DNA from: Thermoprotei archaeon
GTDB lineage: Archaea; Thermoproteota; Thermoprotei; Gearchaeales; WAQG01
Reading direction: 5' to 3'
DNA: 64,000 nucleotides
NCBI GenBank assembly: GCA_038881895.1
Contig: JAVZOV010000004.1
Coordinates: 34,521 to 98,520 of the forward strand
Part shown: in pieces, positions 5,124 to 54,185 of the stretch
Layout of the letters: every line of letters begins with the position of its first letter
Numbering within the stretch: position 1 is the stretch's first letter
Program-made: the position numbers and the translations under genes
Notes under the pieces: generated by a model
What the model saw: only the letters and a program-made list of their open reading frames with translations
Database searches by the model: none
Told to the model about the DNA's origin: nothing

Positions 5124-5977
5124 CGTTTAACAGCCTCTACTATTTTTTCTAACAGTTTACCAGAAACGTTGAACCCGGTTACGCGTACAGTATTTTTATA
5201 CTCGGGAATTCCATTAACTTCATCAACTAAATATCCTCGTGATGGGTCTTCGAAAATATCAATACCCAAAAATAGACCACCCACACTTTCTTTAACTTTC
5301 AAAGATAAATCGATTAATTTATCATCAATCTTTAATGGCTCTGCCCTTGCGCCCAGCGCAGTATTTGTTCTCCAATCCTTTTCATTAACCCTGTATATAC
5401 CCACAGGAACTTCATCACCAATTACAAAAATCCTTATATCCCTATTAGGTTTTCTCACATATTCTTGGATGTAAAAGATATTTTTAAACAATGCGTTTGA
5501 ATATTCCTGGTATTCTAAAAGACTTTTTAATGAATTCTCGTCATCAGCTTTCGCAACCATCCGACCCCAACTGCCATTAACCGGCTTAATAACAACAGGA
5601 TATCCAATCTTTTGAGCCAATTTTATAGCTTCATCCCTATTATAAGCTATTCCAGTTCTAGGCACAGGTATATTATTTTTAGCTAATATTGCAGTAGTGT
5701 ATATTTTGTTCTCACATACTTCTAGTACACGGGATGGATTAACAACAAACAATAATTTTGATTCAAAAAGAATAGTAGAAGTGTACGCTCTGCTATGGCT
5801 AACTCCTCTTTGAATCACAGCATTAATATCTAAGTTTAATCCATCATTTATATTAACAAAAAAATCTTTTAGATAAATTGGTGTGATCTTAATTTGCCGA
5901 TTTTTTGCTTCATTGATTATATCATTTTCTTCCCATCGTAAAAAGTCGTATGCTATTCCTAATTTCACTCTCCCCAA
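5120..5977 (-). CDS. lysX: ATP-grasp ligase LysX (alpha-aminoadipate--LysW ligase, RimK-like)
   Basis: RimK/ATP-grasp architecture; TTG start overlapping the lysW stop; sits between lysW and lysJ. Confidence 0.8.
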
Positions 5978-7438: not shown

Positions 7439-8482
7439 TCACACCGGCCTTAAAGGAGGCATCATGAGACCTTCCCCTTCATCAAAACCCATAGATATGT
7501 TAAACGCTTGAACCGCCTGTCCGGCACCACCCTTAATTAGATTATCTAACGCTGCAAACATGGTAACTCTGTTAACACGCTTCTCAAAGGCAAACCCAAT
7601 ATCAGCAAAATTACTCCCAACCACATACTTTGGATCTGGATACGGAGGAAAACCTTTAACAATACGAATAAACTTTTTATCTTTATAAAATCCTGAGACA
7701 ATTTTTAATAAATCCAAATTACTCAATGCATTTTTAACCCAAATATGTGCAGAAGCCAACACACCTCTCACACTGCCTACAGCATGAGGAATAAGGCTTA
7801 CCTTCACAACATTCTTAGAAAATCGATTTAATTCTTGTTCAACCTCAGCTACGTGCCTATGTCCCTCAGCTTCATAAGGTCTAATAGCATGTTCACGTTC
7901 CGGATGATGACTACCCATAGTAGGTTTAGAACCACTCTCGCTGCTGCCAGCTTTTATATCAACAATAACATTATCATAAATTAAACTATTAGCTGCGAGA
8001 GGTGCCAAGGCTAGTATAGAGGCAGTTGCATTACAACCCGGAGATGCTATCAAGCTAGCATTCCGCAACTCATCAAAATGTAATTCAGGTAGCCCATAAA
8101 CAGCCTTAGTCAGGAGATCAGGTTGAGGATGTTCGATTCCATACCAAATCTTATAGAGCTCAGGATCTTTAAGCCTATAATCAGCACTAAGATCAATCAC
8201 TCGCAAACCAACATTTAAAAGGTTTGGAACCAAAGTCATCGAGACACCATGTGGTACAGACAAAAACACTACATCCGATAGGTTCGTTAACTTATTTATA
8301 TCATATTCTGAAAACTTCAAAGAATAAAATCCTCTTAAGTTTGGATGCACAAAAGTTATAGGTTTTCCAACGTATTCTTTAGAAGTCACATAAGTCACTT
8401 CGACTTTCGAATGACTAGCTAAGATCCTTAATAACTCTCCTCCATTATAACCCGAACCACCAACTATGGAAACTCTAACCAT
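7439..8482 (-). CDS. lysY: N-acetyl-gamma-glutamyl-phosphate reductase-type enzyme, LysY/ArgC
   Basis: NAD(P)-binding VSIVGGSGYNGGEL N-terminus and catalytic Cys motif SPGCNATA; the likely start is the ATG at 8482 (MVRVSIVGG), inside the longer listed ORF. Confidence 0.8.
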   Translation of the reverse strand: MVRVSIVGGSGYNGGELLRILASHSKVEVTYVTSKEYVGKPITFVHPNLRGFYSLKFSEYDINKLTNLSDVVFLSVPHGVSMTLVPNLLNVGLRVIDLSADYRLKDPELYKIWYGIEHPQPDLLTKAVYGLPELHFDELRNASLIASPGCNATASILALAPLAANSLIYDNVIVDIKAGSSESGSKPTMGSHHPEREHAIRPYEAEGHRHVAEVEQELNRFSKNVVKVSLIPHAVGSVRGVLASAHIWVKNALSNLDLLKIVSGFYKDKKFIRIVKGFPPYPDPKYVVGSNFADIGFAFEKRVNRVTMFAALDNLIKGGAGQAVQAFNISMGFDEGEGLMMPPLRPV

Positions 8483-8760
8483 AAATACTAAAAATAACTC
8501 CAAAATAAAACATTTTTGTTACATTAAGAACAAAAAGAAAAAACAATAAAACAAATAAAACATTAAAAGCAAACATCACAAGTTTTACAAAAATGAATTA
8601 CACTACTAGCTTGTTATACTAAAGGAAGGAACTATAACCTCAAGTTGAATACCTCAATTATACTAACAATATTATCACGGAACTAAAGTTTAGTCTCTTG
8701 CTGAATTTCTGTAAAGGGGAAATAGGAAATAAAATTTTCTTAAAAATTTCATTTTTATAA

Positions 8761-9012
8761 TGATGAGTCCCAGAAAGCTTAGAGCTTTGCTGGGATGAAT
8801 GGGCAAAGTTTATGATGTTAACCCACTAATTTAAATGTTCCAGATGTGAATGGAAAGAATTTCGTCTGAATTGGAGCGAAAACATAGTCCATAGGATAAT
8901 AAGCTTTATGAGATAGTTGAGTTGTGAGACTCGCAAACCAGCAAATAAAGAAATGAGTGTGAAGTCCATCCTAAACGCTGGGAGTCCCTGCTTTAGCTGT
9001 GGAGAGGTTCGC
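8761..9012. repeat. Interspersed ~240-bp repeat, copy A (near-identical to copy B at 20053-20295)
   Basis: Shares a 5' palindrome (AAAGCTtagAGCTTT) followed by ctgggatgaatgggcaaag, and a 3' core gcaaaccagcaaataaagaaatgagtgtgaagtccatcctaaacgctgg, with copy B. Confidence 0.6.
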
Positions 9013-9310
9013 TACATTGACATTCTCCGTGGCTGAAGCCAGGAGATTCTCGGTTTGTCGTGGGGCCTCCACTCATCCTACCGAGTTCGGGCTGTGCCAA
9101 GGCAGCCCCTGCCATGAGCATATAGCCCATAGCCCGCTCGCTGGAACCCCCCCACCCGTCTTGGATGGGAGCCTTATTCCAGCTTTCGGACGTCCCATCC
9201 ACATCCGAGCGACACGCTCAAGGAGATGGTGGACTTGGATGAATATAAACTTAACGGCGATTCATCTCCACGACTGAAGTCGGAAGCCTTCTCGCCGAAA
9301 GAGTGGTAAC
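9013..9310 (-). pseudogene. tnpB: Decayed tnpB 3'-end remnant. The first ~125 bp is homologous to the 3' end and right end of the intact tnpB at 52797-52921; the rest is GC-rich with no intact ORF
   Basis: 9017-9137 aligns at high identity with 52801-52921, differing mainly in a ~22-nt central segment. The minus-strand frame encodes ...RAMGYMLMAGAALAQPELG, the same C-terminal peptide as the intact TnpB. No TnpB-like upstream reading frame. GC content is far above the flanks. Confidence 0.55.
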
Positions 9311-9347
9311 CTATTAATATTTAAGGTATTGATTTTAATTATAGAAT

Positions 9348-10268
9348 ATGATCGGATCTAGTTATGATTTGGTGGTTATGGGAGATTTATGCTTAGATAT
9401 TGATGTGTATTATTCTAAGAATACTGAAATTTTAGGTAATCAAAGAGAGGCCAAAAAAGTTGATATACTGCTTGGGGGGTCAGGAAGCAATGTTGCACGA
9501 ATTGCCAAAAGGCTTGGCTTATCTGTTATGTTGATCTCATCATTTAGTGATAATCCGATAGGTAATTTGTTAAAGTATTTCATAGAAAGTGCTATGGGAA
9601 AAGAAAACTTGTTATTGGCAGTTCATCATGATAATGAAGCGTATACGGTGATAAATATTGTTGGTAAGAATGGTGTGCGGAGAGCGATTTATCATATTGG
9701 ATCAAAAATTAATGGATATATTGGAAAGGTACAGAGTATTAATCTAAAGATATTTCATATATCAGGATACGCATTAGAACTTATCGATTATGATGAATTT
9801 ATAACACTACTTGATGTACTATCTAAAAAGAATGTCAAGATTGGTTTAGATTTATTTCCAAGAATAAAAAATGTACGGCAAGAATACCTTAACAACATGT
9901 TGGAAAAATTAACATTCTTATTTGGAAACGTTGAAGAATACATAACTCTAACCAATTCACGAAATATAAAGGAAGCAATTAATAAATTAGCTGGCATGAA
10001 GCCTTCTGTAAAAGTCATAAAACTTGGTTCAGGTGGTTCTCTTGCTATCCTTAAGAATAACATTATTAAAGAGAAAGCGTTCAAAGTAAAAGTATTATCA
10101 GTGAAGGGCGCAGGTGATGCATTTATAGCAGGTTTCTATGCTGCATATTTAAAGAATTTGCCATTATGGTTATGTCTTCGCTTTGGAAATTATGTTGCTT
10201 CGTTAGTAGTATCGGGAAATCAGGATATGATATCGGAAGAATTAATAACAAATATACAAACATTGTGA
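9348..10268 (+). CDS. PfkB-family carbohydrate kinase (ribokinase-like; substrate not assignable from sequence)
   Basis: N-terminal GG motif (LLGGSGSNVA) and C-terminal GAGDAF anion-hole motif. Confidence 0.75.
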   Translation: MIGSSYDLVVMGDLCLDIDVYYSKNTEILGNQREAKKVDILLGGSGSNVARIAKRLGLSVMLISSFSDNPIGNLLKYFIESAMGKENLLLAVHHDNEAYTVINIVGKNGVRRAIYHIGSKINGYIGKVQSINLKIFHISGYALELIDYDEFITLLDVLSKKNVKIGLDLFPRIKNVRQEYLNNMLEKLTFLFGNVEEYITLTNSRNIKEAINKLAGMKPSVKVIKLGSGGSLAILKNNIIKEKAFKVKVLSVKGAGDAFIAGFYAAYLKNLPLWLCLRFGNYVASLVVSGNQDMISEELITNIQTL

Positions 10269-20017: not shown

Positions 20018-20052
20018 TCTATTTATTGGCTTCATATTTTTATATAGATGGG

Positions 20053-20295
20053 TGTCAAGAAAGCTTAAAGCTTTGCTGGGATGAATGAGCAAAAGTTTAG
20101 ACACGAAGCTAGCTCACTAAATTCTAGATGTTCCAGATGCAATGGAATAACATCTGAATTGGAGTGAAAACATAGCCCATAGGTTAACGAGATCTATGAG
20201 ATAGCGGAGCTGTGAGCACTGCAAACCAGCAAATAAAGAAATGAGTGTGAAGTCCATCCTAAACGCTGGAAGTCCTTGCTTTAGCTGTGGAGTGG
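20053..20295. repeat. Interspersed ~240-bp repeat, copy B
   Basis: Near-identical ends to copy A (8761-9012) with a more divergent middle; 5' perfect palindrome AAAGCTTaAAGCTTT. Confidence 0.6.
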
Positions 20296-20348
20296 CTCAC
20301 AATAGCTATCTTTATATTTTTAAAAAAAGAAGATCTATTGATGATAAT

Positions 20349-30691: not shown

Positions 30692-30783
30692 TGGGGCCGG
30701 CCGGATTTGAACCGGCGATCCCCAGGGCCCGAGCCTGGTACTCTAGGTTTTTAGCTTCCTAGACCAAGCTAGACTACGGCCCC
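30692..30783 (-). tRNA. tRNA-Pro (anticodon CGG) with a ~16-nt insertion (probable non-canonical intron) in the D-arm; no encoded CCA
   Basis: Reverse complement folds as acceptor GGGGCCG/CGGCCCC, intact anticodon stem-loop CCAGG-CUCGGGC-CCUGG, T-arm GCCGG-UUCAAAU-CCGGC; the D-arm region is 38 nt instead of ~19. Confidence 0.6.
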
Positions 30784-50740: not shown

Positions 50741-50800
50741 TTTTACCAGAACTCCGACAAGAGAGTTCAGAACTTTAGTTCTGGGATGAATTGCCGAAAG
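50741..50800. repeat. Partial, divergent copy (copy D) of the 5' module of the interspersed repeat: palindrome CAGAACTttAGTTCTG + gggatgaattgccgaaaggtttgatg
   Basis: Same architecture as the 5' ends of copies A and B (palindrome followed by ctgggatgaatgNgcNaaRgtttRtgatg), but the palindrome arms have a different sequence. Confidence 0.4.
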
Positions 50801-50940
50801 GTTTGATGCTCGTTAAGGATTCTAATTCTTGGGTAGTTCAGCGGCATCCAGAAGATCTTAGAACTCTAACCCTCTACAGCTAGAGGAAGTTATTGTTCCT
50901 TTAGGGGTCAGGTTTATTTATACTGAATCTTATTTTGTAA

Positions 50941-52796: not shown

Positions 52797-52960
52797 AATT
52801 GACATTCTCCGCGGCTGAAGCCGGGAGATTCTCGGTTCCTCAGGCTCAAGCCTTCATCGTACCGAGTTCGGGCTGTGTCAAGGCAGCCCCTGCCATGAGC
52901 ATGTAGCCCATAGCCCGCTTAAGGATGTTCGTTGCTCCATTATAGTCTGCGTTGCATTGG
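52797..52960 (-). ncRNA. Predicted omega-RNA (reRNA) scaffold overlapping the tnpB 3' end and right end
   Basis: Inference from the TnpB family's known architecture; the same ~125-bp segment is what survives in the remnant at 9013-9137. Extent not determinable from sequence alone. Confidence 0.35.
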
Positions 52961-53922
52961 ATTCCGCAGTTTTGGCATTTGAAGAGGCCTCCGACTCGAA
53001 GCCCCCTATGCCCGCATTTATGGCACAGCTTTGAAGTGTTTCTCTCGCTTATCTTAACAACTTTGATTCCGCGCCATCTCGCCTTATACTCTATGAATTG
53101 GCTTAGCCTATGGTATGGGAATCCGTTGTTGAGCTTTCTTTTGAAAGTCCTACCTCTGCCGTTTCGTCTTATGCCCTTGAGTTTTCCAAGAATTATCATG
53201 GAGTCGTTCGCCAAAGCTTCGTTGACTATGGCTCTGCTAATCTTATGCAGGATGTCGCTAACAACTCTTCTCTCTTTACGCCCAATCTTCTTTATGGTTC
53301 TGTAGGCCCTCTTTAAAGCTAAAGACCTTCTAAGGTAGAAGTAGTGCCCCTTAACCCTTCTAAGCTCCCTCCCATAGAACTTCGGTCTCGGATTGGTTGA
53401 GTTGACTGTTGTGGCTATCCAGCGTATCCCCATATCTATAGCTAAAGTCGACTTAGGATTTCTCTCCTCGACTTCTTTTTCAACAGTTATGTGGACGAAC
53501 CACTCATTACCTTTCTTTACGATTTTTGCCTCTCTGCAAATCATGTCATCAGTTATTGGTTCATGGGTCTTTATAGGGACGTTTATTCCGCCTCTAACCC
53601 CATAAATTGGAATCTTGAGCCAATAAGGCGTCAGCTTGGTGTCCGCTCTGTACATGTCCCTTCTAAGGATTAGCGGGTATTCCTTGTTAGGCTTAACATT
53701 TCCAAGCCTCTTTAGAAGTCTGTCAGCCTGTTGCTTTGTAGCGGAATAAAGTGGAACAGACTTGTCTCCATGCAAATAGCGTTGCCAATTCTCGTATTCC
53801 CTTCTAAGAAGCTCTTCCTTGCCTTTGCGAAGTTCAAGAACCTTTGCCTTAATGGTTTTCTTAGCCTTCATGAGCGACTCGCCCATAGAAAAATTAACTG
53901 ACAAGTATTTAAACGCATTCAT
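52846..53922 (-). CDS. tnpB: TnpB (IS200/IS605 OrfB; RuvC-like RNA-guided nuclease family)
   Basis: RuvC-I LAIDMGIRW, RuvC-II Glu region, zinc finger CHKCGHRG...CQNCGIQC, RuvC-III NADYNGATNI; GC content clearly above flanking genes. An internal Met (MKAKK...) may be the true start. Confidence 0.85.
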   Translation of the reverse strand: MNAFKYLSVNFSMGESLMKAKKTIKAKVLELRKGKEELLRREYENWQRYLHGDKSVPLYSATKQQADRLLKRLGNVKPNKEYPLILRRDMYRADTKLTPYWLKIPIYGVRGGINVPIKTHEPITDDMICREAKIVKKGNEWFVHITVEKEVEERNPKSTLAIDMGIRWIATTVNSTNPRPKFYGRELRRVKGHYFYLRRSLALKRAYRTIKKIGRKERRVVSDILHKISRAIVNEALANDSMIILGKLKGIRRNGRGRTFKRKLNNGFPYHRLSQFIEYKARWRGIKVVKISERNTSKLCHKCGHRGLRVGGLFKCQNCGIQCNADYNGATNILKRAMGYMLMAGAALTQPELGTMKA

Positions 53923-54185
53923 CCCATGATTAAAATCATGGGCTTTCTGCTACGTCTCTGTAAAATTACGTAAGAGAGCGTCCCTTTACGAAGGGTTTAA
54001 CGCAGAAGAGAGAGATTAAGTATAGATATGGAATCCATACTTAGTCCAGAACCATTAATAGGTTTTAAGACATCTCATTTAAAATCTCGTCCATTCATTC
54101 CAGGACTAAAGTTCTAAGTTTTTTGGACGTCCAATAGTATAAATAAATTTTTATTAAAGAAAAGAAACATAAAAATGTGGTACTT

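Follow-up and report, generated by a model that had tools for sequence, protein, structure and literature searches.

A GC-rich island upstream of pfkB in a Thermoprotei archaeon consists of two protein-less IS200/IS605-family elements

Protein-less derivatives of insertion sequences (IS) of the IS200/IS605 family are known as PATEs, for example the PATE-like elements of Geobacillus stearothermophilus (Meers et al. 2023 preprint, PMC10055086). An archaeal case is SMN1, a 320-bp non-autonomous element of Sulfolobus islandicus which, according to Berkner & Lipps 2007 as cited in PMC3718332, is mobilised by the transposase of ISC1733, a member of IS200/IS605. In IS608 of Helicobacter pylori the cleavage sites are TTAC and TCAA and the guide is AAAG; TnpA needs a single subterminal hairpin only (PMC3201880). 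For the omega RNA (reRNA) of TnpB, the systems available for comparison are ISDra2 and SisTnpB1 of S. islandicus (bioRxiv 10.1101/2023.03.06.531077). Here we describe a GC-rich island in a 64,000-nt stretch (referred to as ‘the window’) of contig JAVZOV010000004.1 from a Thermoprotei archaeon. The island is a known kind of selfish DNA and not a new RNA gene: two small protein-less IS200/IS605-family derivatives with IS608-like ends, elements A and B, lie tail to tail in the spacer between the genes lysY and pfkB.

Element B (9017-9305, minus strand) is a 289-bp non-autonomous element which consists of a left end (LE), a filler and a right end (RE) and lacks tnpB. It resembles PATEs in having both ends without a protein gene, in an RE omega-RNA scaffold that would be usable only with TnpB supplied in trans, and in that its mobilisation would require TnpA in trans. 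Unlike the PATEs of G. stearothermophilus, it resides in an archaeal host (a Thermoprotei metagenome-assembled genome, MAG), has one known copy, contains a 66-nt orphan filler and is known here from sequence alone. With SMN1, as portrayed in the citing source, it shares a host among the Thermoprotei, a length of about 300 bp, descent from IS200/IS605 and the lack of an open reading frame (ORF). This likeness is one of description, and mobility was observed for SMN1 whereas that of B is putative.

The original prediction, made from the window alone, had placed a GC-rich, stem-forming island between the lys genes and a PfkB kinase gene, and this setting holds. Pfam identifies both neighbours, lysY (7439-8503, minus strand; the product has semialdehyde-dehydrogenase domains) and the PfkB kinase gene (9348-10268, plus strand). 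The G+C content is 51-63% in the island (about 8950-9300) and 19-40% in its flanks, the window being AT-rich archaeal DNA. Folding of the minus strand (9310-9011) gave a z-score of -5.0 against shuffled sequences, and the perfect stems comprise one 9-bp pair, TGGATGGGA/TCCCATCCA at 9162-9170/9193-9201, and three 7-bp pairs. As had also been claimed, no tnpB frame is found upstream of the RE homology: the island contains only ORFs of 43-92 aa, for which a Pfam search returned no match. Rfam was run on the whole window at the gathering threshold and on 8500-9500 with E values up to 10; the island had no match at the gathering threshold and only chance-level matches (E 1.4-4.6). ARAGORN called no tRNA in the whole window. 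An island that is rich in G+C and folds strongly, set in an AT-rich archaeal genome, resembles a new RNA gene, yet this one is made of transposon ends, and recognizing them averts a mis-annotation.

Ends, filler and insertion site of element B

Element B is complete at both ends to the last base (TTAC|...TGTCAA), and the six helices of its RE as well as both hairpins of its LE are intact. TTAC (9306-9309, minus strand) is the target and left cleavage motif and the predicted transposon-associated motif (TAM); the same tetranucleotide precedes the LE at the loci compared. B is inserted 3' of this TTAC without inverted terminal repeats or target duplication, the flanks GGTTAC| and |TGTAGC not being duplicated. 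With 59% G+C it stands out from a genome of roughly 30-35%. Inside B there is neither a transposase gene nor tnpB, the distance from LE to RE leaving 66 nt. B thus retains all cis elements of the IS family but encodes none of the proteins; tnpB has been cleanly removed, and its ORF is replaced by the GC-rich filler. The idea of a decayed IS is therefore correct with respect to origin. Random decay does not apply, since what is left is a clean succession of LE, filler and RE bounded by TTAC and TCAA.

The contact of the island with an interspersed repeat, copy A, was confirmed as well. A and B are arranged right end to right end, and A terminates 4 nt from the RE homology; the four bases between them, TACA (9013-9016, no strand assigned), are a remnant of the ancestral spacer. 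When B is deleted in silico, the joint reads ...GGTTCGC TACA|GTAACCTATTAATATTTAAGG (also given as TACA|GTAACCTATTAATATTTAA), and the related locus L001 has TGTAGTAATCCATTAATATTTAA at the same place. This match indicates that B entered TTAC on the minus strand just beyond the right end of A. B adjoins the conserved ATTAATATTTAA box of the pfkB promoter, which it directly precedes.

The LE of B occupies 9207-9305 on the minus strand. A profile of left ends detected it by nhmmer at 9304-9207 (E 1.5e-18), and the alignment with 13 other LEs runs from TTAC to the hairpin at the start codon. By blastn, 9243-9298 (minus orientation) matches the region 40-90 nt upstream of the tnpB start in L021 with 84% identity over 56 nt. 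The consensus of the 13 elements is TTAC, 13-16 nt, AGAAAG, a hairpin, GGGATGAATYGYCG, TTTAAATA, about 25 nt, GAGCGAGTCGCTC and ATG. The corresponding parts of B, all on the minus strand, are CGGCGAG-AAGG (9287-9297, with the guide-like tetranucleotide AAGG at 9287-9290), the subterminal hairpin (about 9266-9286), to which TnpA would bind, GATGAATCGCCG (9255-9266), a TATA-like TTTATAT (9243-9249), which stands at its canonical LE position and may act as a promoter, and the GAGCGTGTCGCTC hairpin (9207-9219), which precedes ATG in full-length elements. The 13-nt palindrome GAGCGAGTCGCTC abuts the tnpB start codon and is nearly invariant throughout the family (e.g. 53872-53884 and 9207-9219, both minus strand); it is kept in B and may represent a regulatory or 5'-end hairpin.

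Between LE and RE lies the orphan filler (9141-9206, minus strand), 66 nt with 60%-plus G+C, which sits where the ATG and the tnpB ORF would follow and runs into the RE module. It folds either through the 9-bp stem mentioned above or through an alternative GCTGGAA/TTCCAGC stem. A homologue of the filler was found neither in the window nor in 464 kb of 35 related loci, the JGI metagenomes (20-mer search) or IMG/VR (21-mer search). A scrambled tnpB was considered as its source and rejected, as there is no similarity on either strand. In a blastn search of the island against the window, 9139-9310 proved to be unique sequence. The original prediction had described 9138-9310 as GC-rich, stem-forming sequence adjacent to the RE homology and had named a frameshifted, unexpressed tnpB body as a finding that would overturn it; the segment neither extends the omega RNA nor represents such a tnpB body, but is composed of an IS-family left end and the filler.

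The ends of this IS family follow IS608 in several respects. The left cleavage site TTAC lies about 19 nt 5' of the foot of the LE hairpin, AAAG lies 5' of the foot, the RE ends with TCAA a few nucleotides 3' of a hairpin, and inverted terminal repeats and target duplications are lacking. Unlike IS608, the family is tnpB-only (IS1341-like), with no tnpA seen. The distance from the hairpin foot to the end of TCAA is 8 nt, compared with about 10 nt in IS608, and B has AAGG where IS608 has AAAG.

The right-end module and the resident TnpB family

The RE of B (9017-9140, minus strand) was recognized by its similarity to the intact IS of the window. By blastn, 9016-9138 corresponds to 52798-52919 with 87% identity over 123 nt (E 1.8e-37); both segments lie on the minus strand. 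The homology to the 3' end of tnpB had been proposed for 9017-9137 and 52797-52921; it is borne out, and its limits can be refined to 9017-9139 and 52799-52920. The shared segment includes the 3' end of the gene and the right end of the element as stated, with the coding part shortened from about 30 codons to the last 24 tnpB codons (RAMGYMLMAGAAL.QPELG...), followed by about 47 nt to the element end ...GGAGAATGTCAA. TGTCAA closes all REs retrieved with the terminal motif (17/17), and B ends likewise in ...GGAGAATGTCAA.

To analyse the structure, the last about 124 nt of 14 foreign elements and the two window copies were aligned and evaluated by RNAalifold and explicit pair counting. The module has six helices, namely P1-P2, a single-pair helix closing the P2 loop, P3a/b and the terminal hairpin, and ends with GAAT, hairpin and AATGTCAA. 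The helices comprise 34 pairs, with 95.3% of the cells paired and compensatory changes on both sides in 19 of the 34. The covariation score is 0.379 versus 0.146 in shuffled alignments, none of 500 shuffles reaching it, and when the partner was slid by 1-3 columns as a control only 26-45% of the cells paired. A covariance model (R2) built exclusively from the 14 foreign copies, without window sequences, gave two significant matches in the window: the intact element at 52799-52920 (131.5 bits) and the island at 9017-9139 (117 bits, E 5e-29), the latter over the full model (positions 1-124). Compared with the intact copy, B carries a compensatory U-A for C-G in the terminal hairpin, and its P3b hairpin is different yet paired. 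The earlier description of a TnpB-less, omega-RNA-like remnant is thus correct for 9017-9139, where the omega-RNA/right-end module is present in a copy without tnpB.

Extension of the alignment by 140 nt into tnpB added almost no covariation; of the pairs predicted upstream, only two have a compensatory change, one each. As covariation is confined essentially to the 124 nt, hardly any of the covarying module is missing from B. A TnpB omega RNA would be expected to lie at the 3' end of tnpB, to stop at the transposon boundary and to covary in several helices, as this module does. Like the omega RNAs of ISDra2 and SisTnpB1, the predicted RNA is structured, overlaps the 3' end of tnpB, ends at the RE boundary and would take its guide from the flank. 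The scaffold is short (124 nt covarying), and the predicted TAM is TTAC, compared with TTGAT or TTTAA in the ISDra2/SisTnpB1 systems. By analogy with TnpB systems, the guide of a B-derived omega RNA would be the 20 nt downstream of TCAA, TGTAGCGAACCTCTCCACAG (8997-9016, minus strand). The first 16 nt of this segment are unique in the window even when up to 3 mismatches are allowed (<=3). An exact 21-mer of the RE had no match in IMG/VR or the GTDB representatives.

The element thus offers a natural dissection of a widespread archaeal tnpB IS family into a 99-nt LE with the TTAC target and putative promoter and a 124-nt RE/omega-RNA module ending with TCAA. Together, the two modules mark out the minimum of cis parts, and a predicted TTAC TAM, for a compact TnpB of thermophiles. 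Should expression of B be demonstrated, a handy minimal omega-RNA scaffold would be at hand.

The resident intact element is a tnpB-only IS of 1161 bp (52799-53959, minus strand) with TTAC at 53960-53963 and its RE module at 52799-52920. Its true LE starts at 53959, after the second TTAC. The tnpB ORF (52846-53871, or to 53922, minus strand) matches Pfam PF07282 and PF01385 (Cas12f1-like_TNB, OrfB_IS605). Family members of about 75-85% aa identity occur in MAGs labelled Thermoprotei, Nitrososphaeria/Thaumarchaeota, Bathyarchaeota, Brockarchaeota, Methanomethylicales, Methanodesulfokora and Methanophagales (loci L007-L024), which suggests either recent wide horizontal transfer among hot-spring archaea or cross-contamination during binning.

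In the resident TnpB, the canonical Glu of RuvC-II is replaced by Gly (motif IILGKLKGI, with LGKL aligned to MEDL of solved Cas12f/TnpB-like structures). About 100 homologues have LG[KND]L in RuvC-II, so that the replacement is family-wide, and RuvC-III is NADYN. A rearranged RuvC-II with Gly for Glu has been described for the RIIr-5 clade (PMC10691335); in this respect the protein is like that clade and unlike ISDra2/SisTnpB1. A dead nuclease was considered and rejected: the Glu is missing throughout the family, which fits a rearranged, presumably active site of the RIIr-5 type.

Truncated or RE-only omega-RNA modules without an adjacent intact tnpB were also observed at L032 (6830-6953), L033 (10208-10330), L024 (927-999) and L015 (1-85). 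At L032, the sequence upstream of the remnant is unrelated and contains no LE.

Putative mobility and possible roles of element B

The orthologous lysY-pfkB spacer is available from the nearest relatives, loci L001-L003 (81% PfkB identity) and L006 (73%). Neither A nor B is present in any of these four spacers, and conservation resumes at 9311; for A, the local alignment score in the L001 spacer is 31, which is within the range of shuffled sequences (mean 27.5, maximum 38). Only the block at 8504-8590 upstream of lysY and the ATTAATATTTAA box by pfkB are conserved. The relatives' spacers are too diverged (<=81% PfkB identity) for a precise empty site, with the context TACA|GTAAC recognizable in L001. 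The absence of A and B argues against a host RNA gene and for an insertion of mobile DNA. The proposal of a retained, TnpB-independent RNA element lacks support, in view of this absence from the relatives and of the missing Rfam match.

On balance we favour the view that B is a PATE/MITE-like, non-autonomous hitchhiker of the IS200/IS605 family which carries an omega-RNA module and lies beside a second miniature element, A. No host function is implied for the island. By analogy with IS608, B could leave its site as single-stranded DNA and be placed 3' of TTAC by a Y1 TnpA whose gene lies elsewhere. Transcription from the LE promoter (TATA-like box at 9243-9249) would run through filler, scaffold and flank and yield an omega RNA, the guide of which (TGTAGCGAACC... 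at its start) would match the donor joint of TTAC and flank left by excision of B. TnpB acting in trans, e.g. from the intact copy 43 kb away, could cut this empty site, and homologous recombination after the cut would restore B.

Several observations weigh against this view. The LE and RE of B resemble the sub-lineages L021/L022 and L007/L012/L023, respectively, rather than the resident IS, so that compatibility with the resident TnpB is only assumed. AAGG replaces the AAAG present in the 13 other aligned LEs (13/13), which could impair or retarget cleavage by TnpA. A crude regex scan of the window, the only search made for it, found no ORF for a Y1/HUH transposase (tnpA). A second copy of B, its filler or its junction was absent from the window, the 35 related loci, the JGI metagenomes and IMG/VR. 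With B single-copy in everything searched, its amplification and hence its mobility stay putative. A search with a pattern based on the LE of B retrieved only L036-L038, three loci with the full-length IS insertion already known from L021.

The single copy, the change from AAAG to AAGG, the lack of tnpA in the regex scan of the window and the likeness of the ends to other sub-lineages together make an inert fossil a serious alternative, which we regard as possible though rather doubtful. A full-length tnpB IS at TTAC would have lost its ORF in situ by a deletion accompanied by the filler, and the product would be young, immobile and not usefully transcribed. Truncated RE-only remnants, as in L032, L033, L024 and L015, are indeed common in the family. 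The completeness of both ends and all their helices and hairpins, and a G+C content still far from that of the genome, speak against a fossil. Moreover, the deletion was limited almost entirely to the ORF, as is typical of PATE/MITE derivatives capable of amplification. An unlikely extension of the hitchhiker would be that B is an expressed ‘guide-only’ minigene, in which the tnpB promoter of the LE is fused to the omega-RNA scaffold through a selected GC-rich 66-nt leader. Such an archaeal PATE would load TnpB made by other copies of the IS and ensure that it is itself retained, perhaps in competition with those copies for the nuclease; if true, this would be natural guide-RNA parasitism between transposons in a hyperthermophile.

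Two further explanations were considered. A domesticated, TnpB-independent regulatory RNA, acting for instance on the lys operon, which lies downstream on the same strand, or on the pfkB promoter, could account for the strong predicted fold, for the direction of the LE promoter towards the lys operon and for the position of B immediately before the pfkB promoter box. We consider it very improbable, as A and B are absent from relatives with 81% and 73% PfkB identity which have conserved the lys block at 8504-8590, Rfam finds no family, and IS ends explain every structured part except the filler. Hardly credible is a small protein, encoded by a 92-aa ORF on the plus strand (8999-9277) or by a 69-aa ORF on the minus strand (8993-9202) which keeps the frame of the TnpB tail. 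Such ORFs exist, and gene callers report an 84-aa ORF in the corresponding, non-homologous spacer of the relatives. These reading frames, however, cross two independent elements and their junction and have no Pfam match, and in an AT-rich genome the composition of GC-rich DNA suffices to make stop codons scarce in it.

Element A and other features of the window

Element A (8759-9012, plus strand), which the original prediction called an interspersed repeat copy, is not unrelated to B. With its LE-like and RE-like ends it, too, is a miniature element of the same superfamily, a 254-bp, AT-richer, non-autonomous member of a related subfamily. A second full copy, A2, is located at 20044-20300 (plus strand), and a 3' part of the family, A3, at about 452-576. 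In blastn, 8751-9010 matches 20036-20298 with 82.5% identity and 489-550 partially. A starts with an LE-like hairpin followed by GGGATGAATGG (LE profile match at 8770-8812, E 0.0024) and terminates with an RE-like hairpin and GGAG plus 8 nt; this end, CTGCTTTAGCTGTGGAG plus 8 nt, matches the terminal RE hairpin of L014/L007. In a blastn comparison of A with the related loci, L016/L009 are hit in their LEs and L014/L007 in their REs, and both the order and the orientation of the matches are correct. An omega-RNA-like structure in A was considered and rejected: the plus strand has no significant fold (z -1.3), the score with the model is about 12 bits, and the consensus energy of three copies is weak (-12 kcal/mol). 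A search of IMG/VR with the A-family pattern gave two matches, both of them chance matches of the seed only.

The putative target motif directly 5' of A is TTAT (8755-8758, plus strand), at the position of TTAC in canonical LEs. TTAT also precedes A2 (20040-20043) and a further element, D (54139-54142, minus strand), and the terminal tetranucleotide is altered in all three. At the right ends of A-type elements (9005-9012, 20293-20300), GAGT is found instead of GAAT 5' of the RE hairpin, and the terminal motif is TCGC/TCAC instead of TCAA. By analogy with retargeted IS608, these changes may reflect co-variation of guide and cleavage site.

Besides A, B and the one intact IS, the miniature elements of the window are thus A2, A3, C and D. 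Element C, of about 148 bp (50747-50894, plus strand), follows TTAC at 50743-50746, has a canonical LE detected by nhmmer (E 9.5e-9) and ends with an RE-like hairpin, CCTCTACAGCTAGAGG, plus 8 nt; it is located just upstream of an acyl-CoA dehydrogenase gene. Element D, of about 165 bp (53974-54138, minus strand), is A-like; it is arranged head-to-tail with the intact IS and separated from it, on the upstream side, by 14 nt (TTACGTAATTTTAC).

In L001, a different insert occupies the orthologous site (5866-5958). It contains an inverted repeat (CTGTCCAG...TGGACAG) and adjoins the same GTAA/TTAC context. Two independent contigs, L004 and L005, break inside the insert of the relatives, as expected of a repeated element. 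The A-rich block upstream of lysY (8504-8590, about 85 nt), the first about 60 nt of which are about 90% conserved in L001 and L006, is probably the promoter/operator of the lys operon. At 30699-30758 (minus strand), Rfam reports a tRNA match (31 bits, gathering threshold 29 bits; model positions 7-64) which was not called by ARAGORN; it may be either a fragment or an archaeal tRNA that is split or contains an intron.

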